A stretch of 64,000 nucleotides of DNA. Source: an uncultured Gammaproteobacteria bacterium (GTDB lineage Bacteria; Pseudomonadota; Gammaproteobacteria; Pseudomonadales; Pseudohongiellaceae). The stretch's first letter is position 1, and each line of letters starts with the position of its first letter. This document shows, piece by piece, positions 46,325 through 61,528 of the stretch. The stretch lies in contig CAJWGN010000001.1 in the NCBI GenBank assembly GCA_913031035.1, positions 2,923 to 66,922 of the forward strand, in the 5' to 3' direction. The notes beneath the pieces were generated by a model. That model ran no database searches. It saw nothing but the letters and a program-made list of their open reading frames with translations, and was not told where the DNA came from. The position numbers were made by a program, and so were the translations under genes.

Positions 46325-47728
46325 ATGATTATTAAGTGTAAACACCAATTTCTCTCGATAAGCTGTCTTTTAGCTACCCTGTTTTGTGGTAACGCTTTTG
46401 GGCAAGAAGAAGGTCGGGCGGAGGATGAAAGCGAATCTAAAAGTGAATCTGAAAGTATCGAACGGCCATTTAGACTGTATTTTATTGATAAGCCAATTGA
46501 AATTGATTCTAGCACTGATGACCGAGCTGTCTGGCCTATAACCAAAGCGGAAGTCATTTCCGAAGATGACCCTCAATTTATTCGGCGTATGGGCAGTATT
46601 CGTGAGTACACGGAGTCGGTTCAAGCAATAGAGTCAGAGGGGGGAGTCTGGGACAGGGGCCTAATCGAAGGTCTGGCAACCTTAGGGGAGCTCCAACAGC
46701 GTCAAGGCGACCATATTACAGCTATAAAGACTTTTGACCGGGTTGTTCACGTAAGCCGAATCAACAATGGGCTGCATACACTAGAGCAGATTCCTGCCTT
46801 AGAGCAGAAAATTGAAAGTTTTCTGGTATTGGGTGATTGGGAACAAGCGGACCTTTATTACAATTATATGTTTTACATCCAGCAAAAAGCCTATGGCAAC
46901 ACTGATCCTCGGATCATTCCAATGCTTGAGCGCTTGGCTCGCTGGAATCTCCGGGCTTTTAATATAGGTTTAGGGAAAAACCTAGGTGAGCGGCTTAACT
47001 CAGCTCAACTTTTATTTGATGCCGCTTCAAAAATGGTTGATGTCCATTTTGGCCGCTCTGATAAGCGCTACGTTGACTACCAACAAAGCATTGCAAACGC
47101 TTCTTATCTGGTGAGTCAGCACCCTGAGCTAATGAACGAAATGGAGAGGCCGGAGTTTCGTCTCAACCAAGACCAACTGCGGCGACGGTTGATAAGCTCT
47201 GAGCGATCGGCATCTCGAGGCTTTCAAGCAGGCGAGGAGGCACTTCTGAATATCCTCGCTCAACGACAAGTCGAAGATGGGCTATCGGTGCCTTTGGCCG
47301 AAGCGAATGCTAATTTAGGCGACTGGTATCTGATGTTTGGTCGGCGCAAAGCTGCTGTGCAGCAGTACGCTAGTGCTTGGCAGATTATTGCTGACTTGGA
47401 GGACCATCCGGAGCTTTTAGCAGAATTTTTTGGTCACGTAGTACCTCTGCCTTCTTTTCTCGACGCCCCCACCAGTTTAGTTTTTGCATCGGAGAAAGGA
47501 AAAGACACCAAGGAACTTGAAGTGGGTTTTGTGGATCTACGTTTTGATGTAACCGAAAACGGCGTTGTCCGAAATTTAGAAATAGTGAGTGGTGAAAGTG
47601 AAGAGAAAGCACTTATTTTGGGGAGACTGCAGCGGCAGGTTAGAAGTTCAGTGTTCCGGCCTATGCTTGAAGATGGGATTGCTATTAGGTCGATTGGCAA
47701 TCAGTTTCGATACCGGTATTGGTACTAA
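46325..47728 (+). CDS. Secreted TPR-like helical-repeat protein with a C-terminal TonB_C-like domain
   Basis: Has the signal peptide MIIKCKHQFLSISCLLATLFCGNAFG|Q and a helical-repeat middle region. The C-terminus VGFVDLRFDVTENGVVRNLEIVSGESEEKALILGRLQRQVRSSVFRPMLEDG follows the TonB C-terminal pattern (G.V.v.F.v...G.v.n..v.....). Confidence 0.5.
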   Translation: MIIKCKHQFLSISCLLATLFCGNAFGQEEGRAEDESESKSESESIERPFRLYFIDKPIEIDSSTDDRAVWPITKAEVISEDDPQFIRRMGSIREYTESVQAIESEGGVWDRGLIEGLATLGELQQRQGDHITAIKTFDRVVHVSRINNGLHTLEQIPALEQKIESFLVLGDWEQADLYYNYMFYIQQKAYGNTDPRIIPMLERLARWNLRAFNIGLGKNLGERLNSAQLLFDAASKMVDVHFGRSDKRYVDYQQSIANASYLVSQHPELMNEMERPEFRLNQDQLRRRLISSERSASRGFQAGEEALLNILAQRQVEDGLSVPLAEANANLGDWYLMFGRRKAAVQQYASAWQIIADLEDHPELLAEFFGHVVPLPSFLDAPTSLVFASEKGKDTKELEVGFVDLRFDVTENGVVRNLEIVSGESEEKALILGRLQRQVRSSVFRPMLEDGIAIRSIGNQFRYRYWY

Positions 47729-47947: not shown

Positions 47948-49081
47948 ATGCAAAAATTAACGAATCAAATTCCACGTTTGGCCTTGTTAGCCGGCTTAAG
48001 TCTTGCGATTGTTGGTTGCCAGTCGAGCCAAAGCTCTAGCAGCTCTCCTCCTCCGCCTAGTCCGAGTTCCAGCTCGCCCTCAAGCCCGAGCCAATCGTCC
48101 CAATCTAGTAGCCAGAGTCAGTCTCAGAGTCAGTCGCAAAGCCAGAGTAGCTCTTCAGGATCTGCCGCCCAAACCCAAGGGGCAGGTCAGTCAGGCAGTT
48201 CGCAGGCGCAGGGCCAAGCTGGCACCTCTCAAGGGAGTGCGGGTGCGGGCAATACTTCTCCTGGTCAAAGTCAGGCTAATACCGCTGGCGCAGGTCAAGC
48301 CTCGGGTTCGTCTAGCTCTGGCGGGGGCGGTCAACAGCGAACCGTATCTTTCCCTCCGAGTATTGAAGGGTCTGGAGATACTCAAGGACAGGGTTCTGAG
48401 CAAGGGTCTCCAGAGGGCCAATCCGGGTCGAGCACAACGTCTGGTCAGGGTGCTGGTGGAGAATCACGTTTTCCAGGTGAGCAGGGCGGCTCAGGACAAG
48501 GACGAGATAGTTCGACTGGGGATTTAGGCAATGGACAAGGTGCCAGCAGTAGCGGTTCTGCTGGCAATTCAGGTCTTGGTAGGCCCCCTGGTGGGGATTA
48601 TAGTTTAGAAACCCTCCCAGAAGGCGTTGCAGGTGGCACAAGTGCCTCGGGAGGCAGTGGTGCTCTAACCAACGCTGAAAGAATTCAAGTTCTTGATGAG
48701 AGGCTTAGAAAAGGCTATGAAACCTTCGATGGCTATATTCTAAGTGAGCGTGAACGTGCTCAAAATGAAAGTAATGCTGCAGGTAGTTCAGCCCCAGGTG
48801 GTTCGGCAGGAGGAGGTGCTACAGGCGGCGCTCAAGGCCAGCCGCAAACACTTCCAGCAGAGGGTGAGACACCGAGTTCGGTGGCGACTTCGCAGAGACC
48901 AAACGCCAGCCAAGCTCCACCGGAAACGTTCCCAGCGCCAGATGACATTCCCAGTGGCAGAGATGATGATGTCGTTGCGAGGCAAATTCGCGAATTGGCT
49001 ATGAGCGAACCAGACCCGGAGTTGCGTGAAGCGATTTGGGATGAATATAGAAAATATACAGGTACTGGTGAAGGACAATGA
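47948..49081 (+). CDS. Lipoprotein with ~300 aa of S/G/Q/A low-complexity region and a small acidic helical C-terminal domain
   Basis: Has the lipobox LAIVG|C at residues ~19-24. The low-complexity region includes (SQ)6 encoded at 48107-48151. The C-terminus reads DDIPSGRDDDVVARQIRELAMSEPDPELREAIWDEYRKY. The stop overlaps the next start (ATGA). Confidence 0.6.
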   Translation: MQKLTNQIPRLALLAGLSLAIVGCQSSQSSSSSPPPPSPSSSSPSSPSQSSQSSSQSQSQSQSQSQSSSSGSAAQTQGAGQSGSSQAQGQAGTSQGSAGAGNTSPGQSQANTAGAGQASGSSSSGGGGQQRTVSFPPSIEGSGDTQGQGSEQGSPEGQSGSSTTSGQGAGGESRFPGEQGGSGQGRDSSTGDLGNGQGASSSGSAGNSGLGRPPGGDYSLETLPEGVAGGTSASGGSGALTNAERIQVLDERLRKGYETFDGYILSERERAQNESNAAGSSAPGGSAGGGATGGAQGQPQTLPAEGETPSSVATSQRPNASQAPPETFPAPDDIPSGRDDDVVARQIRELAMSEPDPELREAIWDEYRKYTGTGEGQ

Positions 49082-50262
49082 GAATTATGCTTAGAAATCT
49101 AACCACCCTTGTAACGGCCGCATTATTTTTAGTTTCTTGTGCAACACATACAGTTAAGTCGACTAGTTATACCCCGATTGTGCGGGATTCCCAAGATACG
49201 CCAGAATACTTACTGCTGGATGTTGGAGTAGCAGTCTTTGATCCTGGTTTAGATGAGATTAAAAAGAGCGAAGAAGACGTAACTAATCATGAAATTCGTG
49301 TAGCGGAGTCCCGCTATGCGCCGTTTTTACTTTCCGAAACACTTCAGCGATCCGCCAATTGGGGTATTGTGCGAGTCATGCCAAACCAAGAGAGCCCAAT
49401 GGATGTCTCCCTCAAAGGGACAATTCTCAGCTCCAATGGCGAGCAAATGGCGATTCGGATCGAAGTATCCGATTCCACCGGGCGGCAGTGGTATACAAAA
49501 GAGTATAAAGAAGAGGTTAGCAAATTCAGTTACGAGCCCAGTGAGCGCCAAAAAAATGATCCGTTCCAAGTTGTTTACAACACTATCGCGAACGATCTAC
49601 TCGAATACCGTAAGCGCAATTTAAAGAACGACGAGCTTACCGAAATCCGCACAGTGTCCGAAATGCTATTCGCCCAGAGATTCTCTCCTGATGTTTTTGG
49701 CCAGTACCTCATAAAAGATCAAAATGGAAACTTGCAAGTAGTTAGTTTGCCAGCGGAATCGGACCCACTCTTAGAAAGAGTGAGAGGAATTCGCGAACGT
49801 GATTTTATGTTTATTGATACCGTGCAGGATTACTACGCGACATACGTAAGACAAATGCGCTTACCTTATGATTCATGGCGTCAACAAAGCTATGAAGAAA
49901 CCATTGAAGTACGTGATTTGAAAAACTCTGCCCGGCGTCGATTTATTGCTGGTACGGCAGTTGTACTTGGCGGTTTAGCGGCGGCCTCTAGTGGCGGGAA
50001 TTACGCGACACAAACAGGTGGTGCTGTCGGGGTTGGAGCTGGCGCGGTTCTTATAAAAAGTGGATTCGATAAGCGGGCAGAAGCAAAAATTCACATGGAC
50101 GCTTTAGAAGAACTCGGTCAATCACTTGAAAATGAAGTCGCCCCAAGGGTTCTGGATTTAGATAATCGCAGTATTACATTAACCGGTTCCGTTGAAGAAC
50201 AATACGCGCAATGGAAAGAAGTGTTAGCAGATCTCTACGCAGCAGAAGTCGGCGGACCTTAG
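49078..50262 (+). CDS. Lipoprotein with a C-terminal Gly-zipper/hydrophobic segment
   Basis: Has the lipobox LFLVS|C and a later segment FIAGTAVVLGGLAAASSGGNYATQTGGAVGVGAGAVLI. An SD GAAGGA lies upstream. Confidence 0.6.
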   Translation: MRIMLRNLTTLVTAALFLVSCATHTVKSTSYTPIVRDSQDTPEYLLLDVGVAVFDPGLDEIKKSEEDVTNHEIRVAESRYAPFLLSETLQRSANWGIVRVMPNQESPMDVSLKGTILSSNGEQMAIRIEVSDSTGRQWYTKEYKEEVSKFSYEPSERQKNDPFQVVYNTIANDLLEYRKRNLKNDELTEIRTVSEMLFAQRFSPDVFGQYLIKDQNGNLQVVSLPAESDPLLERVRGIRERDFMFIDTVQDYYATYVRQMRLPYDSWRQQSYEETIEVRDLKNSARRRFIAGTAVVLGGLAAASSGGNYATQTGGAVGVGAGAVLIKSGFDKRAEAKIHMDALEELGQSLENEVAPRVLDLDNRSITLTGSVEEQYAQWKEVLADLYAAEVGGP

Positions 50263-50303: not shown

Positions 50304-51830
50304 ATGTCTGATAAAAGAAGCGAAAGTGCTGACCTCGATCACGTCGATGACAATGCAGTATTTAAAACGGCTAGCCCTCAAGCTCAAATTGATAAGCCTC
50401 CAATAATTCTATGGCTTGGATTAGGTGGTTTATTGCTAGTGGCGTTATTGGTAGTTTTTGTCCTGCCAGTGCTGGTTACTGAATATGAGTTACCTTTAGA
50501 AAGGCGTGTTGATATTGCCGAGCTTGTGCCTTCACCAGCTTCCCAGCGAGAATTAGAAATATCCCCGTTTGAAGAAGCGCAGCGCTCTATTCAGAGAAAA
50601 AACGCACAAGACGTACTAGCCGAATTGCTGGAAATTCAAGGCGAGCTATCAGCCTTAGACGTTGTTGAATGGGGACAGCGTCAATTTGAAGAAGCGCTGT
50701 CTCAAGCAAGCACTGGCGATGAATATTATCGAAGCCAAGAATTTTTATTGGCAGTAGAAGTTTATGGGCTTGGGCGCGATACATTAGCGCAACTCAGAGA
50801 CTCTGTGCCAACGGTTATAGCTCAAACACTCATAGAAGCCGAGACTGCCTTCATAGCCGGTGATGCGTTGGTTGCAGAAGAAAAATATGCTTTGGCATTG
50901 CTTCTAGACGCATTTGATGAAGCTGCCCTAATTGGTTTAGAGCGCTCAAGAACATTAAGTGAGGTAGTTGATCTTTTAAACCAAACTGATGATCTGATCG
51001 AAGATGGCGGCCTCGAGCAAGCAAGAAACCTACTTGATCGCGTTATTAGTTTGGATGGTCGCAATTTAATTGCGCCGGCTAAAAAAACTGAAGTAGTCGC
51101 AATGATCCGCGAGCGAGAATTTTCTTCGATCATGTCTGCTGGTTATACAGCTTTAGAAACCGGCGACCCAGATGCAGCAATCACACAATTCGAAAATGCT
51201 GCGAACATGGGAATTAATCAAAACCAGGCGCTGGCGGCAATAACTCAAGCCGAAAATGAAATTGCAAACGCAGAAATAAATGTTCTTAGGCAGGCGATCG
51301 ACTCCGCCGAAAATGCCGAGCAATGGCAAGACGCCGTTGATAGCTATGACAAGGTTTTAATAATCGATTCAAATTTATCATTCGCAATTAATGGCAAGGA
51401 TTATGCTACTAAACGAGAAAGACTAAATTCCTTGTTGGTTGCAGCAAACAGTAATCCTCAGCGGCTTGCCGAAGATGACGTCTACCAGCAAACTATCGAT
51501 GTTTATTACACAGGCCGGGCTATCGATGAGCCAAGCTCAGTTTTGTCCACTCAACTCGATCTATTGGAAGGATATTTAGAAAACTCTCAGATACCAATTA
51601 ACGTCCAATTTATATCTGACAATTTGACCGATGTAACACTTCTTAGAATTGAACACGTCGGACTTTTTGAGCAGCAGAAAATGTCACTCAAGCCAGGTAA
51701 CTACGTAGCCGTTGGAAAGCGGTCCGGATACAGAGAGGTTAGAAAGGAATTTGTCGTGGGATTTGATCAAACTCCAAGCTTAGTCATAGTGCAATGTGAC
51801 GAGCCTATAGCTCCCAGCAATAGGCGATAA
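50304..51830 (+). CDS. Single-pass membrane protein with a periplasmic TPR-like region and a PEGA-like C-terminal beta domain
   Basis: Has the TM segment IILWLGLGGLLLVALLVVFVLPVLV after an acidic N-terminus. A long alanine/glutamate-rich helical-repeat region follows. The C-terminus reads LKPGNYVAVGKRSGYREVRKEFVVG. Confidence 0.55.
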   Translation: MSDKRSESADLDHVDDNAVFKTASPQAQIDKPPIILWLGLGGLLLVALLVVFVLPVLVTEYELPLERRVDIAELVPSPASQRELEISPFEEAQRSIQRKNAQDVLAELLEIQGELSALDVVEWGQRQFEEALSQASTGDEYYRSQEFLLAVEVYGLGRDTLAQLRDSVPTVIAQTLIEAETAFIAGDALVAEEKYALALLLDAFDEAALIGLERSRTLSEVVDLLNQTDDLIEDGGLEQARNLLDRVISLDGRNLIAPAKKTEVVAMIREREFSSIMSAGYTALETGDPDAAITQFENAANMGINQNQALAAITQAENEIANAEINVLRQAIDSAENAEQWQDAVDSYDKVLIIDSNLSFAINGKDYATKRERLNSLLVAANSNPQRLAEDDVYQQTIDVYYTGRAIDEPSSVLSTQLDLLEGYLENSQIPINVQFISDNLTDVTLLRIEHVGLFEQQKMSLKPGNYVAVGKRSGYREVRKEFVVGFDQTPSLVIVQCDEPIAPSNRR

Positions 51831-51832
51831 CG

Positions 51833-53911
51833 ATGGATAACCCTAACGTTAAGAATGAGCCAAACGGCTCTAACGACCCAATAGTACCAATAGATTTTAC
51901 ACCTAATGAAAATAAGGCAGCCCGTGTTTCGTTTAAGCTGAAACCTATTCATTTTATTCTGGCCGCATTTTTCAGTATTTCAGGGTTTGCCGCTTGGTTT
52001 GTATTGACGGCGAAATCTGTTTCCATCGAAGCGAATCCAGTTACCGCTGTAGTTGAAATTAGCGGTGGCTTAAAATTCAAGTTGGGGCCACGTTATTTAA
52101 TTCGCTCAGGCCGCTACGATATTAAATTAGTAAACGAGGGTTATCACGATAGCGAATCTATATTGGTGGTTAGTTCAGATCAGACTCAGACCCACCTTTA
52201 TGAAATGCAGAAGCTTCCGGGGATCTTAAGTTTCGCTACTAAGGATCTAATCGCCGCTAGGGTGCAAGTCGATGGCATAGACCTCGGTGAGACGCCATTA
52301 ATGTCTATATTGGTTGAGGCCGGCGAGAGGCAGCTAACCGTATCAAAGGACCGTTACCTAGACTTTGCGCAGACAATCTTAGTGGAGGGGCGGTCGGTAG
52401 AGCAAAGCTTCGAGGCTCAATTAGAGCCTGCCTGGGCAACCGTCAGCTTGACGACAAGTCCTGCTGGAGCCGACGTCATAGTGGATGGCGAACTTATTGG
52501 TACTACTCCTATGAATGCGAAAATCATTCAAGGCCAGCGCGACCTCACCCTGAAGCTCGCAGGGCATAAGGCATGGCAAGAAGATTTTGGTATTTTTGCG
52601 GGAGAAGATTTTGTTATTCCTGATATAGAATTGGAGCCGGCAGATGGACTAGTCTTCATTCAGTCCTCACCATCGTCAGCCTCGGTGACTATAGGAGGAG
52701 AGTTTAAGGGTTTAACGCCACTTGAGGTTTCCTTGGCTCCGGACATTGATCACGAAATCACCTTTTTTAAAAATGGATACAACTCAAGTAAACGCAGCAT
52801 TAGAACTCAGGCCAATCAAGAAAGTGGGGTCAGTGTTAGCTTGGATCCTGTGCTGGCTAATGTTCAGGTAATTAGTCAGCCTGAAGATGCGCAGCTTTAT
52901 GTTAATGGAGAGCTTCGTGGTCTCGCAAATCAAACGCTTGAGCTAATAGCAGCAAGTCAACAAATCGAAGTACGTAAGGCAGGCTATGTCCCTTTTACAG
53001 CGGAATTCACCTCAAGACCTGGCCTGGATCAGGTAATCCGAGTCAGTCTTAAGTCTCTAGAGCAGGCCCGACTTGACCAGATCGAACCGGTTATTAGTAA
53101 CGCTGCTGGTCAGTCGCTTAAACTTTTCTATCCATCCGCTTTTACAATGGGGGCATCTCGCCGTGAAGCCGGTCGCAGGTCAAATGAAAACCTGCGAGAG
53201 ATAAAGTTGGAACGACCATTTTATATAAGCTATAAAGAAGTGACCAACGCTGAATTCAGACTGTTCGATAGCGAGCATTCCTCTGGTATTTTACAGGGTT
53301 TGAGCTTAAACAATGAGGCTCAGCCCGTGGTTAGACTCAGTTGGACACAGGCCGCGCTTTTCTCTAACTGGCTCAGCGAGCAAGAGTCTATTGAGCCTTT
53401 TTACGATGTTTTAGACGGCGACGTTGTTGGTTATAACTCAGAATCTACCGGTTACAGGATGCCCTCTGAAGCTGAATGGGCATGGGCCGCAAGGGCTGAT
53501 GGTAGCGGAAATCTCTTGAAATATCCGTGGGGCACACAGCTGCCTCCGCCAGACAACGCTGGAAACTTTGCAGATATTACGGCGAGAAATTATCTGGGAG
53601 AGGTCATGTTTGATTACGAAGATGGCTATTTGGCAACGGCTCCGGTGGCATCCTTTACTGCTAACCAAAATGATCTGTTTGACATGGCAGGTAATGTTTC
53701 GGAATGGGTTCATGACTACTACGGTTCAGTTGGATCAGCCAATGGCGCTGAAGTTGACCCGCTGGGTTCTGTAAACGGTCAGTTTCACACAATTCGCGGC
53801 TCTAGCTGGGCTCATGGTTCTGTTTCTGAGATACGGCTATCGTTTAGAGATTTCGGTGAAGAGCCACGAGACGATGTTGGATTTAGAATCGCTAGGTATT
53901 TAGAGGAGTGA
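51833..53911 (+). CDS. Membrane-anchored protein with 5 PEGA-like repeats and a C-terminal FGE-sulfatase (SUMF1/PvdO-like) domain lacking the catalytic cysteines
   Basis: Has the TM segment IHFILAAFFSISGFAAWFVLTA and PEGA-type repeats (VDGIDLGETPL, VDGELIGTTPM, IGGEFKGLTPL, VNGELRGLANQ ...). FGE-fold blocks are PVVRLSWTQAALFSNWLS, GYRMPSEAEWAWAAR, GNVSEWVHDYY, IRGSSWAH and VGFRIARY. Confidence 0.8.
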   Translation: MDNPNVKNEPNGSNDPIVPIDFTPNENKAARVSFKLKPIHFILAAFFSISGFAAWFVLTAKSVSIEANPVTAVVEISGGLKFKLGPRYLIRSGRYDIKLVNEGYHDSESILVVSSDQTQTHLYEMQKLPGILSFATKDLIAARVQVDGIDLGETPLMSILVEAGERQLTVSKDRYLDFAQTILVEGRSVEQSFEAQLEPAWATVSLTTSPAGADVIVDGELIGTTPMNAKIIQGQRDLTLKLAGHKAWQEDFGIFAGEDFVIPDIELEPADGLVFIQSSPSSASVTIGGEFKGLTPLEVSLAPDIDHEITFFKNGYNSSKRSIRTQANQESGVSVSLDPVLANVQVISQPEDAQLYVNGELRGLANQTLELIAASQQIEVRKAGYVPFTAEFTSRPGLDQVIRVSLKSLEQARLDQIEPVISNAAGQSLKLFYPSAFTMGASRREAGRRSNENLREIKLERPFYISYKEVTNAEFRLFDSEHSSGILQGLSLNNEAQPVVRLSWTQAALFSNWLSEQESIEPFYDVLDGDVVGYNSESTGYRMPSEAEWAWAARADGSGNLLKYPWGTQLPPPDNAGNFADITARNYLGEVMFDYEDGYLATAPVASFTANQNDLFDMAGNVSEWVHDYYGSVGSANGAEVDPLGSVNGQFHTIRGSSWAHGSVSEIRLSFRDFGEEPRDDVGFRIARYLEE

Positions 53912-54180
53912 TGATGAGAAATTTAACTCACGTTTACGCGGTTTTGCTTGTATTGGCTAGCGCGAATGTAATGGCACAAGATCAGACTCCAAATGAGCCT
54001 AGTGTAATAGATTTTGAGGAGCCTGAAGTGTCAAGTGAGCTAGTGCTAGATGAAGAGCCAGCCACCGAAAACGGCTCAATAGAATCACAGCAAGAAGATG
54101 ACGCACAAGCATCTCAAAGGTTTATCCCGACCGAAGAGATATCACAGGATTTAGGTGTTTCTTTTCCTGCAAACATATAA
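53911..54180 (+). CDS. Small secreted acidic protein (~89 aa)
   Basis: Has the signal peptide MMRNLTHVYAVLLVLASANVMA|Q and a mature part rich in E/D. The start overlaps or abuts the upstream TGA (GTG 53908, ATG 53911 or ATG 53914), with AGGAG at 53902-53906. Confidence 0.5.
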   Translation: MMRNLTHVYAVLLVLASANVMAQDQTPNEPSVIDFEEPEVSSELVLDEEPATENGSIESQQEDDAQASQRFIPTEEISQDLGVSFPANI

Positions 54181-54241: not shown

Positions 54242-55048
54242 ATGAAGCAAGGTTTGTTGTCTGAAGCTATGTGGCAGTTAGTGCCTCTTATTGTTGCGCT
54301 AATCGTCGTACATGCGGCTTATGTGACAGTGATTCGACCTACCGCAGAGGCTGTTCAGGAGCAGCAGAGCTTCCTGCAGGAATCCAATCCAGATTTTGTT
54401 CCAGAACGGTCCGTCTATATTATTTTGAAAGACCTTGAGCAAGAGACCTGCATAATATTATTTCTGTGGGCCTCGGCTCTTATAGGCATGAAAACTCAGC
54501 AGACCATTAGGCAACGTGCACTACTTGATCAAACTCTTATTCAATTGTCTGATGGTATGAGTATTCTACCAGAAGACGCAAGAAACTACGCTCGACCAGT
54601 TCAGGCCCTAGGTGAGCGTGAAAAGCAATATTTGCTCCCACGGGCTCTGTTGGCAGGTCTGCAGCGCTTTCAAAGTACGCGCAACATTCAGGACGTATCA
54701 ACTATTGTAAAAGATACCTGCGAGTCTGAAGCTGATCGCATGGAAACAGAATTGTCTATCGTGCGCTACATAGCTTGGGCAATCCCCTCCATAGGTTTCT
54801 TGGGAACGGTTCGCGGTATCGGAACAGCTCTAGGGCAAGCTTATCAAGCAGTTGCCGGTGATATTGTAGGGGTGACAGTGAGTCTTGGGGTTGCCTTTAA
54901 TTCAACCTTTGTAGCCTTGGTTGTTAGCATTTTGTTGACCTTCGTTTTGTACCAGCTGCAATTGCTTCAGGACCGGCTCGTATTGGACTGCCAGCACTAC
55001 TGCGATGAGAAGCTAATTAGCAACCTACAGGTTCCGGACAGAGCATAG
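54242..55048 (+). CDS. MotA/TolQ/ExbB-family proton channel protein (4-TM topology)
   Basis: The C-terminal block VRYIAWAIPSIGFLGTVRGIGTALGQAY...VSLGVAFNSTFVALVVSILLTFVLYQL matches the MotA_ExbB signature (aP.lGLLGTV.G...aF ... AL.tT..GL.vA). Two additional N-terminal TM segments are present. ATG 54242 is preceded by AAGGA. Confidence 0.8.
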   Translation: MKQGLLSEAMWQLVPLIVALIVVHAAYVTVIRPTAEAVQEQQSFLQESNPDFVPERSVYIILKDLEQETCIILFLWASALIGMKTQQTIRQRALLDQTLIQLSDGMSILPEDARNYARPVQALGEREKQYLLPRALLAGLQRFQSTRNIQDVSTIVKDTCESEADRMETELSIVRYIAWAIPSIGFLGTVRGIGTALGQAYQAVAGDIVGVTVSLGVAFNSTFVALVVSILLTFVLYQLQLLQDRLVLDCQHYCDEKLISNLQVPDRA

Positions 55049-55050
55049 CC

Positions 55051-56409
55051 ATGAGTTTAAAAATAATAGAACTTAACGACGCAGGGATAAAAGTTGGGGA
55101 CCATGGTGGCATCGTCGCTCATAGTCCTGGTTTTGCTCTGGTGGTTGGTAGCGAGCTTTTATTGGGTGAGCGTGCAGAGAAGCAAGCGCGCTTACAGCCG
55201 ACTAAAAGCTATAATAAATACTGGTATGAACTCAGTATGGAACCCTTAAATCACGGCAATCATCTCAGGCATACAGCGGATATAGCGTTTGCCCATCTTT
55301 TGCATCTCGCCGAAATAGGAGAAATTGAGTCTGATGTTCTTCTTGCCGTACCGGGAAGTTTTAGTTCTCAGCAGCTAGCGATACTTTTGGGGTTAGCGAA
55401 GCAAAGCCCTATCAATCCGATAGGCGTAGTCGACTCAGGTCTTGTTGCTGGGATTGCCGCTGGGATTTGTGAATCCTCTTTATTTATCGACTTGCAACTC
55501 CATCAGATTGTTGTAACCAAACTTAACTTCAGCAATGGCCTTTTAACCTCTGAATCAGTTGTTCAAATCCCAGGTGTGGGCAGTCAGAATTTCATTAATT
55601 TGATGATGCAGAAAGCTACCGACTCCTTTATTGAACAATGCCGTTTTAATCCTCAGCATAATGCTGAGTATGAGCAGCTTCTCTATAGCCAGTTGCCGCT
55701 TTGGCTCAGCCAATACGATGATTCTCAGACTAATTTAATGTTGGAGCTCAAAACTAGTGATGCCTTGCACGTTGCGAAAATGCCTAAGGAAGGTCTTATC
55801 GCTAGTTTGCAAAGTCACTATAAGAAAATCAACCAAGAGCTTGAACCCTTGCTTAGCGATCAATACTCTACTCTTATTCTTAATAAAGGCTTGGCATCAT
55901 TGCCCGGCTATATGGCTAGTTTACCTGAGTTCAAATCCATCAAAGTTTTGCAAGGCCATGAGATAATTGAAGCCTGCCTGGACCATGTAGATAGAATAGT
56001 GACGCCGGGAGAGGAAATTCATTTAGTAAGATCTCTTCCTGTTGCCGGCGGATCGAATTCAACCGGTGCTCATGGACAAATTGAATTAGACGGCGGTGAG
56101 GCACCTACCCATCTCGTTTATCGTAGCAGAGCTGTGGCGCTTGGGGATATTCAAATTCGTAATCCTGACAATGAAAAAGACGGCTCAGGGACCAGCTCCA
56201 AAACAATCAATATCTCAGCGGGCGATTTGCCGACCTTGCTTGGAGAGACTCATGTTAATAGCTCAGGCGCTTTTATTGAGAGCGGTGAACTTGAGTTTTA
56301 TTTGAATTCAAAACCGGTAAAAGGGCTACAGAAAATTTCTCTCGGCGACCAGATTCAATTCGGCATACAAGGTGATGTATTGACCGCAATTCAGGTGCAA
56401 AATGTCTAG
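55051..56409 (+). CDS. Cytoplasmic Hsp70/actin-fold (ASKHA-like) protein with degenerate nucleotide-binding motifs and a C-terminal FHA-like beta region
   Basis: There is no signal peptide or TM segment. [42 protein letters not shown] parallels Hsp70 [51 protein letters not shown] and [16 protein letters not shown] sit where GIDLGTT and DLGGGTFDVS are expected. Confidence 0.45.
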   Translation: [452 protein letters not shown]

Positions 56410-57499
56410 AAAGTCGAGACGTAGAATATCCACTCCCTTGAGCCTTGCCTTCTTGGATGTGATGTTTTGCGGCTTTGGTGCGGTAATTCTAATTTTCCTT
56501 ATTATGGATCACTCGAGTATCACCGCCAAAAACGATGCTAATCCGAGTTTGGCAGCCGAAATTAATCTTCTAGAGGAAGAAGTGTTAGAAGGAGAGCTTG
56601 GCTTGGTGAGAGTGCGTAATACGCTTTCTGATACTTCCTTCGAAGTTGTTGAAGCTCAGGGTCTCGCGCGACAGGTTCAAGATCAAATTGACACCTTTCT
56701 ACAAGAGCTGGCATCGATGGAAAACTCCAGTATCGCCAGTGTCGAGAGTATTGAAAAACTACGGTCGGACATTAAGGCCCTTGAAGAAGAACTATTGAGA
56801 CTGCAGGCTAGCGCTTTTGAGCAAGAAGGTAATAATGTTAGGCAGTACATTGGTGACGGTAATCGACAATATTTGTCTGGGTTCTTCTTAGGAGGGCAGC
56901 GGATTCTAATTTTGGTAGACAGCTCCACTAGTATGCTGGATAGCACGCTAATTAACATTATCAGAACTCGAAACTTGTCAGATGAGCGGAAAAGGCAGGC
57001 GCCAAAGTGGCGTCGTGTAGTCAAAACTATCGATTGGATAAGCACTCAGCTGCCTGTAACCAGCCGCTATCAAATTTGGTCCTTTAGCAACAGCTACACA
57101 AGTGCCATCCCGGGAAGCGAAGCGCGGTGGTTGGAAGTGGCTGACCGAGATCAGTTAAACCAAGCAATTATCAATATTGGCGATACGATCCCCAACAATG
57201 GCACAAATATGGAACAGGTATTTCGCGGGGTCGCCAATATGAATCCGCCCCCGGACAATATATTTCTTATAACCGACGGTCTACCAACGCTAGACGATCG
57301 TGGTGATCCTAATGGGCTGGTTACTCCGAATCAGCGTGCAGAGCTGTTTGAAAATGCTGTCACTGAGTTACCTAGAGGAATACCGGTAAATGTTATTCTA
57401 ATGCCTCTGGAAGGTGATCCTTCTGCCTCTGCAGTGTTTTGGGAACTGGCTCAGGTTTCGAAAGGGTCCTATTTGACCCCTTCTAAAGATTGGCCTTAG
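56402..57499 (+). CDS. TolR/ExbD-like TM anchor - coiled coil - periplasmic vWA (MIDAS) domain protein, paralogue 1
   Basis: The N-terminus MSRKSRRRISTPLSLAFLDVMFCGFGAVILIFLIM resembles TolR ..NIVPLLDVLLVLLLIFM, with the conserved Asp. A heptad-rich ~100 aa follows. vWA motifs are ILILVDSSTSM (DxSxS) and IFLITDGLPT. It overlaps the upstream gene by 8 nt. Confidence 0.7.
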   Translation: MSRKSRRRISTPLSLAFLDVMFCGFGAVILIFLIMDHSSITAKNDANPSLAAEINLLEEEVLEGELGLVRVRNTLSDTSFEVVEAQGLARQVQDQIDTFLQELASMENSSIASVESIEKLRSDIKALEEELLRLQASAFEQEGNNVRQYIGDGNRQYLSGFFLGGQRILILVDSSTSMLDSTLINIIRTRNLSDERKRQAPKWRRVVKTIDWISTQLPVTSRYQIWSFSNSYTSAIPGSEARWLEVADRDQLNQAIINIGDTIPNNGTNMEQVFRGVANMNPPPDNIFLITDGLPTLDDRGDPNGLVTPNQRAELFENAVTELPRGIPVNVILMPLEGDPSASAVFWELAQVSKGSYLTPSKDWP

Positions 57500-57597
57500 C
57501 CGATGTTGTGTATTTTGGAGAGCATTGAATTCGGTATCAATCTTGCTCTATATGAAAAGTCGAACAGCCAGGTTCTTCGAGAGCGTGAGGAGTAAAA

Positions 57598-58602
57598 ATG
57601 AGACGTAGAGACCGCGAATCTGATTCCTTTACGGTGTCTTTTTTGGACGTGGCGTCCTGTGGTTTCGGGGCGATGATAATCTTGTTGATAATCACCAAGA
57701 TTAATGACCCAGTGACTTTGGAAATAGTCGATGTCCCGCCGGAGGGCAGAGTTATCGAACTGCAAGAATCTTTGTTTGCGATTCGGGGCGAAACCACAAT
57801 ACTGAATCGTGAACTCAACGCAAAGCATGAGCAACTGTCTGCACTCACCGATAGAGTCGCACGGCTACGCCGAGATCTAAATGACATCGAGGGGCGTTAT
57901 CAGACAACAACTGAGCTGTCCGACGAAACCACCGATGAAGCCGGCAAGCTGGCGATTGCTCAGCAATCCTTAACTGACGAAATGCAGCGCCTGCTGGCAA
58001 ATAGCCCAGCAGCAGAGAACAACGCCGTTGGCGGTGTGCCTGTGGATAGCGAATATATTATTTTTATTATCGATACATCAGGCAGTATGTTTAATAATCC
58101 TAGTTGGAATAAAATGCTGGGTGTGATCGACAATACTCTTGATGTATATCCCGAAGTTAAGGGGATTCAGATAATGAACGATATGGGAGACTATATGTTC
58201 AATTCCTACGCTGGCAAGTGGATGCCAGATACGCCTTCCACCCGAAGCCGAATTATCTCCACGCTTCGGAATTGGCAACCTTACAGTAATAGCAGCCCTG
58301 TAGAAGGTGTAACCCGGGCTATCAATACATTCTATTCCCCCGATAAGAAAATCAGCATTTACGTCCTTGGAGACGATTTTCAGCCAGGGGGCTCTATTCG
58401 CAATGTGCTTCAAACCATAGATAGAATCAATGTAGAAGACGCCAATGGGAATAGGCTAGTCAGAATTCATGGGATTGGTTTCCCGGTCATTTTCGACTTT
58501 CCGCAGCGCTTCAGACAGAGTGTTTATCGCTATGCCACGTTAATGCGCGAGATGACGTCACGAAATGGTGGTACATTTGTAGGTCTCAACGACTTCAGAT
58601 AG
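57598..58602 (+). CDS. TolR/ExbD-like TM anchor - coiled coil - periplasmic vWA (MIDAS) domain protein, paralogue 2
   Basis: The N-terminus MRRRDRESDSFTVSFLDVASCGFGAMIILLIIT is followed by a coiled-coil-like segment. vWA motifs are IIFIIDTSGSM (DxSxS) and ...LMREMTSRNGGTFVGL. An SD GAGGAG lies upstream. Confidence 0.7.
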   Translation: MRRRDRESDSFTVSFLDVASCGFGAMIILLIITKINDPVTLEIVDVPPEGRVIELQESLFAIRGETTILNRELNAKHEQLSALTDRVARLRRDLNDIEGRYQTTTELSDETTDEAGKLAIAQQSLTDEMQRLLANSPAAENNAVGGVPVDSEYIIFIIDTSGSMFNNPSWNKMLGVIDNTLDVYPEVKGIQIMNDMGDYMFNSYAGKWMPDTPSTRSRIISTLRNWQPYSNSSPVEGVTRAINTFYSPDKKISIYVLGDDFQPGGSIRNVLQTIDRINVEDANGNRLVRIHGIGFPVIFDFPQRFRQSVYRYATLMREMTSRNGGTFVGLNDFR

Positions 58603-58665: not shown

Positions 58666-59274
58666 ATGAATAAACACTTAAGTAAAATCGTTCTAGTACC
58701 CATGATCGTTCTTTTTCTAGGGAACTGTGGTGTAAATAACGTGGTGATAGAAGGGCAGTTTCCTACGCCCAATATTAGCAAAATGCCTGTCTATGTAGCG
58801 GTGATCTACGACCAAGCTTTGAGGGATTTTTCTTACCTTGAATACACTGAAACAGGATCCGAAGAATTTAATATCCAAAGCGGTGCCTCTCACGTGGAGT
58901 TGTTTAATTCGATAACACCGGCGATGTTTGAGCAGGTAATTTTTGTCGACACCTTAGAAGAAGCTCAAATCGCTGGAGTCGATGCAATATTCGCCCCTGC
59001 TATTGAGGAGTTTCAACTGGCGCTGCCAGCGAAAACAAAGCTGGACGTCTATGAAGTGTGGATAAAATATAATATGCGACTTCTCACCGCTCAAGGAGAC
59101 TACATCGCTGACTGGGTTTTGACGTCCTACGGCAAGACACCAACCGAATCATTTCAAACGGTAGAAGGGGCAATTAATGATGCGGCTGTGATCGCCTTAA
59201 GAGACCTTGCCTCCAGCTTTTCGCTAAGTTTTAGCGATGTACCTGAAGTCCGAGATTGGCTGGATCAGCAATAA
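58666..59274 (+). CDS. Lipoprotein, unknown family (202 aa)
   Basis: Has the lipobox LFLGN|C and an SD AAAGGA upstream. Confidence 0.6.
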   Translation: MNKHLSKIVLVPMIVLFLGNCGVNNVVIEGQFPTPNISKMPVYVAVIYDQALRDFSYLEYTETGSEEFNIQSGASHVELFNSITPAMFEQVIFVDTLEEAQIAGVDAIFAPAIEEFQLALPAKTKLDVYEVWIKYNMRLLTAQGDYIADWVLTSYGKTPTESFQTVEGAINDAAVIALRDLASSFSLSFSDVPEVRDWLDQQ

Positions 59275-59302: not shown

Positions 59303-59980
59303 ATGAATCCTAATCCTATTTTTAAAGAAGGCCGCTTCAAATTTTTGTTGTTGATGGCGTTAAGCTTTGTAGTTTCTTGCACTAGCACTACAGTTGATGA
59401 GTTTAGGCAGGGTGAAACTGGAATCAGCGATGATGAAACCGTCGTTGTTCTTGGCCGACGTCAAGCCAGCGACTATGAAACGAGGTCAGAGTTTATTGAA
59501 TGCGTGGGCGATAAAATGGCTCGGGGGGACAACGCGCTCAATATTATTCCTGAACAAGAGTTTATAGATGCTATGTTTCCCTGGTTTGAGCCTCGCACTG
59601 CGCCACTCAGAACTCAAGACTTAGCTAAGCTAATGTCAGAAGATGTGGTGGCAGATAAAATGGGTGAATTTGGCATTCGTTATATTGTCTGGGTCGATGG
59701 TTTTACTGAGACATCAGGAAGAACGGGATCAATATCTTGTACTGTTGGGCCAGGCGGAGCTGGATGCTTTGGCTTTGGTACTTGGGAAGACGATGCCAAT
59801 TTTGACGCTAGAATATGGGACGTTGGCTCATTCACCAATGTTGGGACCATCAATACCGATGCGTCGGGCCAATCATATTTGCCGGCATTGGTTATTCCAA
59901 TACCTCTAATTGCTCGAGTGGAAGCGAACGCTTGTTCGCGGCTGGCAGATCAGCTTAAAGGATTTGTTAATGGCAGCTAG
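59303..59980 (+). CDS. Lipoprotein, unknown family (225 aa)
   Basis: Has the lipobox SFVVS|C after MNPNPIFKEGRFKFLLLMAL. The start was chosen at ATG 59303; the track ORF begins at 59237 inside the upstream gene. Confidence 0.6.
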   Translation: MNPNPIFKEGRFKFLLLMALSFVVSCTSTTVDEFRQGETGISDDETVVVLGRRQASDYETRSEFIECVGDKMARGDNALNIIPEQEFIDAMFPWFEPRTAPLRTQDLAKLMSEDVVADKMGEFGIRYIVWVDGFTETSGRTGSISCTVGPGGAGCFGFGTWEDDANFDARIWDVGSFTNVGTINTDASGQSYLPALVIPIPLIARVEANACSRLADQLKGFVNGS

Positions 59981-60013: not shown

Positions 60014-61528
60014 ATGACTAGTTTGTATAACTTAATTTCACATATCATCACGCCGTACGCTTTAGTAAATCAGCTTCCTAGAAGACTTCTTTTGTGTGCT
60101 CTATTTTCCTCGATGGTGCTGTCTTGTTCAGTAAACCCAGCAACCGGAGGCGCTAATTTAGTATTAATGACTGAGAAAAAAGAAAAAAGAATCGGTCAGG
60201 AGGAACATGAAAAAGTACTCGCTAGCATGCCGTTATTTGAGGATGAGGAATTACTAATATATGTACGTATGGTCGGAAACAAAGTGGCTAATGTTAGCCA
60301 TCGACCTAATCTAGAATATACATTCAATATAATTGATAGTCCTGAAATCAATGCTTTCGCCTTACCTGGCGGATATGTCTATGTAAACCGCGGCCTACTT
60401 ACTTTCATGAACACAGAAGCTGATTTAGCAGCTGTACTTGCTCACGAGATTGGTCATATCACGGCACGCCATGGCGTGCAACAGCAAGCAAGAGGAACGC
60501 TGGCAAGAACAGCAGCTCAAGTAGGTGGGGTGGTGACAGCTGTAGCTACTGGAAGTGGGTATGTTGGCTCGCAAATCAGTGAAGTTGCTTCCATATGGGC
60601 ACAAACAGGATTGAGTGGGTTTGGTAGGGAGCATGAACTCGAAGCAGATAGTCTAGGTGCAGAATATATCAAAGAGGCTGGGTACGATCCCGCTGCTATG
60701 ATTAATGTTGTCACCGTTTTAAAAAATCAGGAAGATTTTAGCAAACGCGTCAATAATGGAGGTGGGGGCTACCATGGATTATTTGCTACCCATCCCCGTA
60801 ATGATACTCGATTACAAGAAGCCATCGCGGCGGTTGCCAGTTTAGATAATGATGAAATTCGAAAATTAGACAATACTGAATTTAGAGAAAATATAAACGG
60901 GTTGATAATTGGCGCTAGCCAAGCTTCCCAAACGCAAGATGCGCGAAATCGATACTATCAAGCACTGTTGGGTTATACATTGTTATTTCCTGATGATTGG
61001 CAGGTTTCAGAGACTACCACTACAGTGATCGCGAGCAATGAAAGTGTCGGCAATATGAAGATTGAAACCCAGCGCCTTCAGGATAACGTAGACCCACGTG
61101 TCTTTTTAAGAGATACGGTTGGTATTAGTAACCTACAAAAATCTGAATCGTTAGTTCAATACCGACTTCAAGGACATACAGGAACAAACCTTTTGGAAAA
61201 TGGAAACACCGAAAGAGTCGCGGTGATTTACTTAGGTCCTCGTGCTTTCGTTTTTCGAGGTGAAATTACTGACCAATCATCAAGCGACGAAATTGACGAT
61301 CTCCTGCTTTCTACAATCAGGACATTTAGATCAATTCAGAGAGGTGAAGTCGTAGCAGGGACAGAGTTAAAACTAAAATATGTTCAAGCGAGCGAGTTCT
61401 TTGACTTTGCTGTAGTGGCTCAAAGTAGCAAAATAGCGAACTATCCGGAAGAAACTCTACGGCTCTTAAATGGCTACTATCCTGCCGGCAGCCCGGAAGA
61501 AGGTGAGTGGATCAAGTTGATAGAGTAG
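60014..61528 (+). CDS. M48 family zinc metallopeptidase lipoprotein with a C-terminal domain of unknown function
   Basis: Has the lipobox SMVLS|C. It also has INAFALPGGYVYVNRGLL, the HEXXH motif LAHEIGHITARH and a downstream E (GREHELEAD). Confidence 0.85.
   Translation: MTSLYNLISHIITPYALVNQLPRRLLLCALFSSMVLSCSVNPATGGANLVLMTEKKEKRIGQEEHEKVLASMPLFEDEELLIYVRMVGNKVANVSHRPNLEYTFNIIDSPEINAFALPGGYVYVNRGLLTFMNTEADLAAVLAHEIGHITARHGVQQQARGTLARTAAQVGGVVTAVATGSGYVGSQISEVASIWAQTGLSGFGREHELEADSLGAEYIKEAGYDPAAMINVVTVLKNQEDFSKRVNNGGGGYHGLFATHPRNDTRLQEAIAAVASLDNDEIRKLDNTEFRENINGLIIGASQASQTQDARNRYYQALLGYTLLFPDDWQVSETTTTVIASNESVGNMKIETQRLQDNVDPRVFLRDTVGISNLQKSESLVQYRLQGHTGTNLLENGNTERVAVIYLGPRAFVFRGEITDQSSSDEIDDLLLSTIRTFRSIQRGEVVAGTELKLKYVQASEFFDFAVVAQSSKIANYPEETLRLLNGYYPAGSPEEGEWIKLIE

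Follow-up and report, generated by a model that had tools for sequence, protein, structure and literature searches.

To our knowledge, only a handful of ion-driven motors of the 5:2 class are understood: the flagellar stators, Ton, Tol, GldLM, and Zorya. Each of them has revealed another way in which the proton-motive force (PMF) of the inner membrane does work elsewhere in the cell. Here we analyze a stretch of 64,000 nucleotides, called the window below, from an uncultured gammaproteobacterium of the family Pseudohongiellaceae (contig CAJWGN010000001.1, positions 2,923 to 66,922). The window carries an operon that encodes a MotA/TolQ/ExbB-family protein (F) and two membrane-anchored proteins with vWA domains (H and I). 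These three proteins probably form a proton-driven motor, the axle of which is tipped with vWA heads. We designate the main genes of the operon by the letters A to L (Table 1).

The closest described system is the TPH-vWA/tolQ-like family of Williams-Jones, Webby, Bray, Maiden, Kleanthous, and Szczepaniak (Mol Biol Evol 2025; PMC12204202, section 8, Fig. 4c,d). It consists of transmembrane (TM)-tethered vWA proteins encoded tightly beside a tolQ homologue, with no tolR or exbD gene. The transpore helix of these proteins has a conserved Asp and no SHLS motif, and the proteins occur mainly as heterologous pairs, in Proteobacteria and Verrucomicrobia. AlphaFold 3 (AF3) models set the Asp pair inside the Thr ring of the pentamer (PMC12204202). 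Searches for more recent papers or for experiments on the family yielded this 2025 paper alone; a 2026 review of Ton and Tol cites Williams-Jones et al. without mention of the vWA proteins.

The locus in the window agrees with every textual descriptor of that family: vWA domains on a single N-terminal TM segment, a tolQ-like neighbour, no tolR, exbD, or motB, an Asp in the helix, no SHLS motif, and a heterologous pair. The taxonomic range that we observe, Gammaproteobacteria together with Opitutae and Puniceicoccaceae, agrees with the published one. Matched in this way, by description, the locus is probably an orthologue in the TPH-vWA/tolQ-like family. The seed of the family comes from Idiomarina loihiensis, and no Idiomarina member was present in the 20 clusters that were looked up.

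An earlier reading of the window from the sequence alone (the original prediction) regarded the fusion of a motor-type TM helix, a coiled coil, and a vWA domain as not yet described. This is out of date, since the same family and the same mechanistic idea were published in June 2025 (PMC12204202); the idea is thereby independently corroborated. The architecture is already available as an in silico prediction, and what we add is the operon context and a wider list of parts. In particular, the text of PMC12204202 does not mention the cytoplasmic protein G, the small secreted protein E, the PEGA/FGE protein D, the lipoproteins, or the M48 protease, all of which are co-conserved here. Thus the value of this work lies in confirmation and in a fuller parts list, not in the discovery of the concept.

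The MotA/TolQ-like protein and the two vWA paralogues

The three genes named in the original prediction (F, H, and I) are real. F starts at ATG 54242: a Shine-Dalgarno site, AAAGGA, precedes it by 6 nt, and the orthologues start with MKQ. The Pfam family MotA_ExbB (PF01618) matches residues 135-251 of F with E=9.9e-15 (54.9 bits against a cut-off of 22.9), so the domain that had been read from the signatures PSIGFLGTVRG and AFNSTFVALVVSIL is indeed there. Both signatures are near-invariant across 27 orthologues, including a verrucomicrobial one, and P182, G188-T189, and N220-S221-T222 are invariant in this set. Judged by its sequence, F is a true member of the MotA/TolQ/ExbB family. It falls below the equivalog cut-offs of TolQ (TIGR02796), ExbB (TIGR02805), and MotA (NF005997), with 27, 24, and 16 bits against 221, 135, and 340, respectively, and hence belongs to a separate subfamily rather than to TolQ, ExbB, or MotA proper.

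The profile of F aligns to E. coli TolQ (8odt) with E=0.024, which sets T189 on T145 and T222 on T178. The two TolQ threonines have been proposed to stabilise the protonated D23 of TolR (PMC8928145); their counterparts in ExbB are T148 and T181. Single-sequence phmmer searches of the PDB with F and H gave nothing useful.

H and I are homologous end to end (22% identity, BLASTP E=9e-8; hhalign probability 99.9, E=7.6e-32). H starts with RKSRRR, followed by the single hydrophobic segment FLDVMFCGFGAVILIFLIM; I starts with RRRDRE, followed by the single hydrophobic segment FLDVASCGFGAMIILLIIT. There are five Lys or Arg residues before the segment and one after it in H, and four and one in I. The two helices have the motif [SA]-F-L-D-x-x-x-C-G-F-G-A in common, and the SHLS motif of TonB and TolA is absent from them.

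The Asp of this motif, D19 in H and D17 in I, lies three residues into the helix, behind the basic tail. Among 66 diverse H sequences (29-71% identical), F17, D19, G26, S175, D292, and the C-terminal W-P are invariant. The same is true of D17, C21-G-F-G-A25, the IDTSGSM loop, S232-S233, and G258-D259 among 27 I sequences, including the verrucomicrobial one. The basic tails and the single Asp-bearing TM segments that had been proposed for both proteins thus hold throughout these sets. H ends in D-W-P-COOH (window 57491-57499), where W364 and P365 are the invariant pair; this end could make an intramolecular or a partner contact.

The original prediction also placed the Asp where TolR has D23 and ExbD has D25. 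The short motifs are alike (FLDVM in H, FIDVM in ExbD, LLDVL in TolR), and hhalign, run with the E. coli sequences, sets the Asp of H and I on these two residues at E=0.13-0.18. The proposed register agrees with this non-significant alignment; homology of the helices is not demonstrable, as discussed below.

No conventional partner of F was found. A tblastn search with E. coli TolR, ExbD, and MotB gave nothing in the window. We compared the window with 80 loci of its relatives (L001-L080), in which many absences of genes are due to contig ends, and with one verrucomicrobial locus (L081). Eighty of these 81 loci have no match to TolR, ExbD, or MotB up to 10 kb from the operon; the lone match, in L042, is unrelated and 9 kb away. 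According to Pfam and NCBIfam, an ExbD or OmpA/MotB domain is present in none of the proteins of the operon.

The locus resembles TolQ-TolR-TolA and ExbB-ExbD-TonB in the Pfam family of the channel, in the two pore threonines, in an Asp at the cytoplasmic end of a helix after a basic tail, and in the presumed task of coupling PMF to the envelope. Unlike Tol and Ton, it has no TolR/ExbD periplasmic domain and no separate transducer of the TolA/TonB kind. Its axle subunits, of which there are two different ones, carry the stalk and the binding head themselves. Further differences from Tol and Ton are that the E173 of TolQ is not kept and that the operon includes an additional cytoplasmic Hsp70-like protein.

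The part of H and I that follows the TM segment, predicted to be periplasmic, consists of a coiled coil and a vWA domain and is not an ExbD fold. About 100 residues have coiled-coil character and their profiles match coiled-coil chains, in accordance with the heptad-rich stretch noted earlier in both products. In an AlphaFold2 (AF2) model of I, helices span residues 49-107 and 114-135.

The length of the stalk is nearly fixed. Counted over 79 loci, 154 residues (range 150-157) separate the TM Asp of H from the first Asp of its metal ion-dependent adhesion site (MIDAS), and 142 (range 141-145) do so in I. The gammaproteobacterial loci keep this spacing near-invariant even where identity falls to about 43% for H and 50% for I; the values in L081, which is about 28% identical, are 161 and 145. 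The offset between H and I stays near 12 residues across the loci and is 16 in L081. Such constancy is consistent with a stiff coiled coil that acts as a ruler and with partners held in a fixed geometry.

H and I occur together in 79 of the 80 loci and in every case come immediately after F and G. The original prediction left open whether they are alternative or cooperating subunits. The obligate co-occurrence and the fixed spacing favour cooperation in one H-I heterodimer over alternative homodimers.

The head of H matches Pfam VWA_2 with E=1.2e-5, slightly under the gathering score, and PF13519 is found in most of its homologues. The head of I has no Pfam match. The AF2 model of I, although of low confidence (pLDDT 54 overall, 65-80 in the vWA part), retrieves only vWA domains from the PDB: PTMP1, BatB (3ibs), the integrin alpha1 I domain, and CMG2. 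The MIDAS of H consists of D173-x-S175-x-S177, the threonine of a GT pair, and D292, all conserved, with D173 and S177 near-invariant in the 66 sequences. In I it consists of D159-x-S161-x-S163 (within IDTSGSM), S232/S233, and D259, as seen in the 27 sequences. By domain match for H and by homology and fold matches for I, both heads are vWA folds with a DxSxS MIDAS, as had been claimed, and their metal binding is putative.

A putative motor with a vWA-tipped axle

The most probable reading of these data is that F, H, and I make up a motor of the 5:2 class (MotA/ExbB/TolQ) that sits in the inner membrane, is driven by protons, and has a heterodimeric, vWA-tipped axle. A pentamer of F would surround the axle, formed by the TM helices of H and I, which would replace a subunit of the MotB/ExbD/TolR type. 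H D19 and I D17 would carry protons, facing the threonine ring of F (T189/T222). In the periplasm H and I would continue as a parallel coiled-coil stalk of fixed length with two different vWA heads, and the MIDAS metal site of each head would grip an acidic residue of a partner protein. Proton flow would turn the axle relative to the pentamer and so do work on whatever the heads hold. Likely partners would be D, C, E with its C-terminal peptide, and the lipoproteins B, J, K, and L, the last of them a BepA-like protease; G would serve as a cytoplasmic partner or regulator of the complex. The reading is supported by the published AF3 model and by the same conclusion having been reached independently (PMC12204202).

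The proposed motor is similar to GldLM/PorLM with GldK/PorK, the motor of type IX secretion and gliding, a 5:2 motor whose axle is extended as a long periplasmic stalk toward an outer-membrane complex. The gene orders gldK-L-M-N and D-E-F-G-H-I are also alike in that a gene for a protein with an FGE-sulfatase fold shortly precedes the motor genes. However, F belongs to MotA_ExbB, of which GldL is not known to be a member, and no TM Asp or vWA domain is known in GldM. A second parallel is the gliding machinery AglRQS-Glt of Myxococcus with the adhesin CglB, which has a TolQ-like protein with two different TolR-like subunits, many TPR and lipoprotein parts, and a vWA/MIDAS protein (PMC9946355). 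There the vWA domain belongs to a separate outer-membrane lipoprotein, CglB, and the TolR-like proteins are conventional. No Glt homologues were detected at the locus in the window.

Several observations weigh against a motor. The function of the family is stated to be unknown, and no phenotype is reported for any TPH-vWA member (PMC12204202). The likeness of the TM segments to ExbD, TolR, and MotB is not statistically significant and comes down to a five-residue motif and its position. A Pfam search with ten N-terminal fragments at E<=10 gave no match to ExbD (PF02472). A profile of the N-terminal 48 residues (43 sequences) found no ExbD, TolR, or MotB in the PDB, only a chance match to NDUFB4. 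The equivalent of TolQ E173 and ExbB E176 is a Val in F (V217). The topology of H and I is predicted by the positive-inside rule. Over its full length I is modelled poorly (pLDDT 54), and the positions of its TM segment and stalk are not confident; we therefore do not draw the geometry of the stalk from this model. Finally, the E protein of the window has Asn and not Asp at position -2, and for the ligand of the vWA heads there are candidates only. Since the similarity of the helices is insignificant but their context is strong, we regard the relation to ExbD and TolR as a functional analogy, without demonstrable homology.

The weak similarity of the helices leaves some room for H and I not being parts of a motor at all. 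They would then be a vWA scaffold or adhesin of the BatA/BatB kind, the Asp would be structural, and F would be a separate TolQ-like channel or scaffold that only happens to lie in the same operon. BatA and BatB are likewise two paralogous membrane-anchored vWA proteins, and the Bat (Bacteroides aerotolerance) operon also combines such a pair with TPR proteins; among the structural matches of the head of I, BatB (3ibs) ranks second. The Bat proteins are not known to have a motor helix with an Asp or a partner of the MotA kind, and are paired with a MoxR AAA+ ATPase instead. We consider this explanation improbable. An acidic residue that stays invariant in the TM segments of two paralogues, across two phyla, would be difficult to account for if it had no function, and F keeps the threonine pair that partners such an Asp. 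There is no other B-type partner near F, and MotA/ExbB/TolQ proteins are not known to work alone. In addition, the published AF3 models set the helices inside the pentamer (PMC12204202).

Protein G is relevant to which part of such a motor would move. G is separated from F by a 2-nt gap and overlaps H by 8 nt, and is probably translationally coupled to both. No TM segment or signal peptide was found in it, and no Pfam family was found in 50 homologues. Its AF2 model is confident (pLDDT 86.8). The best Foldseek matches of residues ~1-330 are nucleotide-binding domains (NBD) of Hsp70 proteins (E~1e-15, target TM-score ~0.65); residues ~350-452 fold into a beta domain of 11 strands with a conserved LN...G....LGD pattern. 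The profile of this C-terminal part has a non-significant PDB match to the kinesin-like protein 7wrg (E=0.98), in a stretch that we take to be its FHA domain; the beta domain is possibly FHA-like. The phosphate loops of G read IELNDAG and DLQLHQ, with L150-H151-Q152 invariant, compared to DLGTT and DLGGGT in Hsp70. Loops so far from the canonical form make ATPase activity doubtful, and G may be a pseudo-ATPase scaffold.

The protein of 499 aa at the position of G in L081 starts with MKYLGIDLSD, an ASKHA-like phosphate-1 motif. The profile of G does not align to it significantly (hhalign E=0.13). Its equivalence to G thus follows only from the position and from the N-terminal GIDL motif.

These properties of G are compatible with an arrangement in which the vWA heads are static anchors, comparable to the peptidoglycan-binding domain of MotB and ZorB. 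H and I would be fixed to a scaffold of C, D, and lipoproteins, and the pentamer of F would rotate and act on a cytoplasmic or inner-membrane target, with signalling, gating, or remodelling as the output. G would be the obvious target: it is soluble and cytoplasmic, has a confident Hsp70-NBD-like fold, and is encoded between F and H in 75 of the 80 loci, and the MKYLGIDLSD protein holds the equivalent position in the verrucomicrobial locus. Moreover, the cytoplasmic loop of F has residues that are invariant in the 27 orthologues (L131, R134, L140, R142, and F143). In MotAB and ZorAB it is established that the B-subunit is anchored and the A pentamer turns (review PMC9389320).

MotAB/PomAB and ZorAB are comparable to the present system in that the B-type subunit fuses an Asp-bearing TM helix to a periplasmic binding domain. 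They differ from it in having an OmpA-like peptidoglycan binder instead of a MIDAS vWA head on a stalk of ~100 residues, and a flagellar rotor or ZorC/D effector, which is absent here; the axle proposed here is heterodimeric. Two bitopic proteins, a secreted peptide, and four lipoproteins fit an output in the envelope better than one in the cytoplasm, and the non-canonical phosphate loops of G make an ATP-driven effector role doubtful. We consider anchored heads possible, though rather unlikely. They and a turning axle are not mutually exclusive and could coexist.

The locus also has some resemblance to Zorya, in which a MotA-like/B-like motor serves anti-phage defence; its ZorA has a long cytoplasmic tail and its ZorB a peptidoglycan-binding domain. 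Zorya is the known case of a 5:2 motor recruited to a non-canonical role, and PADLOC gives a weak match of F to ZorA (E=0.0035). It gives no further match, and no ZorB, ZorC, or ZorD, among 10 proteins of the operon. Neither a nuclease nor a helicase nor any other effector domain was found in the proteins of the operon with Pfam and NCBIfam. The strict synteny, the high conservation over many genera, and the GC content, which is ordinary for the window, indicate a vertically inherited housekeeping machine rather than a defence island, and we hold a defence function to be extremely unlikely.

Returning to the motor with a vWA-tipped axle, we can only guess its role. Nearly all the other proteins of the operon are assigned to the periplasm or the outer membrane, which leads us to lean toward the handling of outer-membrane and periplasmic proteins or the maintenance of the envelope, rather than motility or defence. 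This is our best guess, made with low confidence.

The operon and its envelope proteins

Genes on the same strand, closely packed or overlapping, run from ~46.3 to ~61.5 kb of the window (Table 1). A tblastn search with the proteins of the window showed a syntenic block in the 80 loci in the order TPR, [A], B, C, D, [E], F, G, H, I, J, K, L. The TPR gene opens the extended cluster in many lineages, and F, where present, is always upstream of the vWA genes.

Table 1. Genes of the operon in the window and their occurrence in the 80 related loci
Gene and product	Length, aa	Coordinates	Strand	Evidence	Loci
TPR protein	467	46325..47728	+	Pfam TPR_12, E=1.5e-7	47/80 (same position)
A, Ser/Gly/Gln-rich lipoprotein	377	47948..49081	+	lipobox IVGC	19/80
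B, conserved lipoprotein	394	49078..50262	+	lipobox Cys invariant in 26 orthologues	60/80
C, bitopic inner-membrane protein	508	50304..51830	+	TM 40-58; weak TPR_2 match	62/80
D, bitopic PEGA + FGE-sulfatase protein		51833..53911	+	Pfam	66/80
E, small secreted protein	90	53908..54180	+	signal peptide, conserved C-terminal peptide	
F, MotA/TolQ/ExbB-family channel subunit	268	54242..55048	+	PF01618	76/80
G, cytoplasmic Hsp70-NBD-like (ASKHA) protein	452	55051..56409	+	AF2/Foldseek	75/80
H (vWA1)	365	56402..57499	+	basic N-tail, TM with D19, predicted coiled-coil stalk, vWA head	80/80
I (vWA2)	334	57598..58602	+	H paralogue, D17, predicted stalk 12 residues shorter, divergent vWA head	79/80
J, conserved lipoprotein	202	58666..59274	+	lipobox Cys invariant	72/80
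K, conserved lipoprotein	225	59303..59980	+	lipobox VVSC	67/80
L, M48 zinc-metalloprotease lipoprotein	504	60014..61528	+	Peptidase_M48, E=6e-38	59/80

The original prediction confined the core module to F, H, and I. This is too narrow: G, E, the PEGA/FGE protein D, and the TPR protein belong to it and are conserved, L081 included, where G is recognised by its position and N-terminal motif only. C, D, E, F, a protein at the position of G, H, and I all have counterparts in L081 and make up a cross-phylum core.

C has a large helical/TPR domain and D has four PEGA domains (Pfam E=3e-43) and an FGE-sulfatase domain (E=2e-36), all predicted to be periplasmic. The NCBIfam model of GldK matches D with E=3e-29, at 102 bits far under the cut-off of 350; D is a bitopic PEGA protein, whereas GldK is a lipoprotein. 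The cytoplasmic N-tail of D contains IVPIDFTP at residues 17-24 (window 51833-51960), and the motif [ILV]xP[IVSA]x[FY]xP is present in this tail in 55 of 63 loci. A similar motif is found in the N-tail of C in many loci of Halieaceae and Microbulbifer. The motif that the two tails share, [ILV]xP..[FY]xP, points to a common cytoplasmic receptor. This is possibly G, the only soluble cytoplasmic candidate, by analogy with PilM, which binds the N-peptide of PilN; the analogy is our own.

E has a signal peptide, followed by a variable linker that is mostly acidic and of low complexity, and its C-terminal peptide is conserved (...RFIPTEEISQDLGVSFPANI). The tblastn search missed it in most loci, probably because most of its sequence is variable and of low complexity. 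Nevertheless, an open reading frame (ORF) of 69-207 aa that ends in [FY]xP[ST]ExIS[EQ]DL[SG]VSFPVDI-COOH lies in the gap between D and F in 70 of 76 loci. A P.D[IV] end is found in 75 of the 13802 ORF ends of the loci, and 70 of these 75 belong to E. The E proteins of the window and of its nearest relative end in SFPANI, and the homologue in L081 (L081:4057-4323) ends in SVEMPSDV. E is not a lineage-specific filler. Its C-terminal peptide is a candidate ligand of the MIDAS heads or of a TPR carboxylate clamp.

B has a glycine-zipper-like hydrophobic hairpin at its C-terminus, and weak C19orf12-like glycine-zipper matches were obtained for five of its 26 homologues; none of the 26 matched a Pfam family, and the profile found nothing in the PDB. 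Low-complexity sequence of Ser, Gly, and Gln makes up nearly all of A, apart from a short acidic region that is conserved at the C-terminus; A is limited to close relatives and matches no family in Pfam, NCBIfam, or PADLOC. The same three resources give no match to J. K belongs to no known family; it has the motif GPGGAGCFGFGTW and, besides the lipobox Cys, four further invariant cysteines (C27, C68, C147, C156, and C212 in total), and it probably contains two disulfides. The best NCBIfam match of L is BepA, with E=1.6e-38 but under the cut-off, and a lipobox is present in most orthologues of L.

Taken further, the motor could be the engine of an unrecognised trans-envelope machine of ~12 genes. 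In such a machine the peptide of E (...SEDLSVSFPVDI-COOH) would be the ligand of a MIDAS or a TPR clamp, G would be a hub that binds the N-peptides of the bitopic partners, and PMF would pull or remodel outer-membrane or periplasmic proteins. We put this forward tentatively and find it rather doubtful as a whole. If true, the machine might feed proteins to the BepA-like M48 lipoprotein, and it would add to Ton and Tol a third way in which energy from the PMF is coupled to the outer membrane.

Distribution of the operon

The 80 loci, over which the operon keeps its synteny, come from Pseudohongiellaceae, Halieaceae, Microbulbifer, Cellvibrionaceae, and Pseudoalteromonas. A scan of GTDB species representatives showed that at least 591 species carry the family. 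The H family includes 1226 representatives at 50% clustering, 277 of which have E-values below 1e-30. The I family gave more than 8000 matches, and identity is at least 78% over the best 120 clusters. With such numbers of clusters, matches, and species the pattern is not a matter of chance. Among the matches listed, the best ones are metagenome-assembled genomes of Pseudohongiellaceae (95% for L001). Cultured carriers include Pseudohalioglobus, Kineobactrum, Congregibacter, Microbulbifer, Biformimicrobium, and Pseudoalteromonas denitrificans.

The family is thus widespread, abundant in marine Gammaproteobacteria, present in Verrucomicrobiota, and strongly constrained. Experiments could start from the two Asp residues and the two MIDAS sites, from a candidate peptide ligand and a presumed cytoplasmic partner, and from cultured hosts.

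Distant members of the H-type clusters belong to Opitutae and Puniceicoccaceae. The gene order in L081 is as follows: a TPR-like gene, PEGA/FGE, an 88-aa ORF, two extra genes, MotA_ExbB, the 499-aa protein, vWA1, and vWA2. Its homologue of C has 23% identity (E=8e-10), and its homologue of D has 27% identity (E=5e-53). The two extra genes (L081:4323-6563, + strand), which separate the small secreted ORF from the motA-like gene, encode proteins of 746 aa and 338 aa, neither of which has a counterpart in the window. The 746-aa protein is extremely acidic and E/Q-rich (161 D+E).

The operon in the window is adjoined by a gene for a type IV pilus (T4P)-type assembly ATPase with an MshEN domain (window 61702-63495, + strand). 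We rejected it as a component of the operon, since it is near only 13 of the 80 loci and is a recognised TfpB, which reaches the NCBIfam equivalog with 920 bits against a cut-off of 850. In L003, the T4P-type ATPase is followed by genes similar to those for lipopolysaccharide heptosyltransferases and not by pilus genes. A homologue with 35% identity (L081:15929-17644, - strand) lies 4.7 kb from the verrucomicrobial operon; the presence of this ATPase beside both operons is probably a coincidence.

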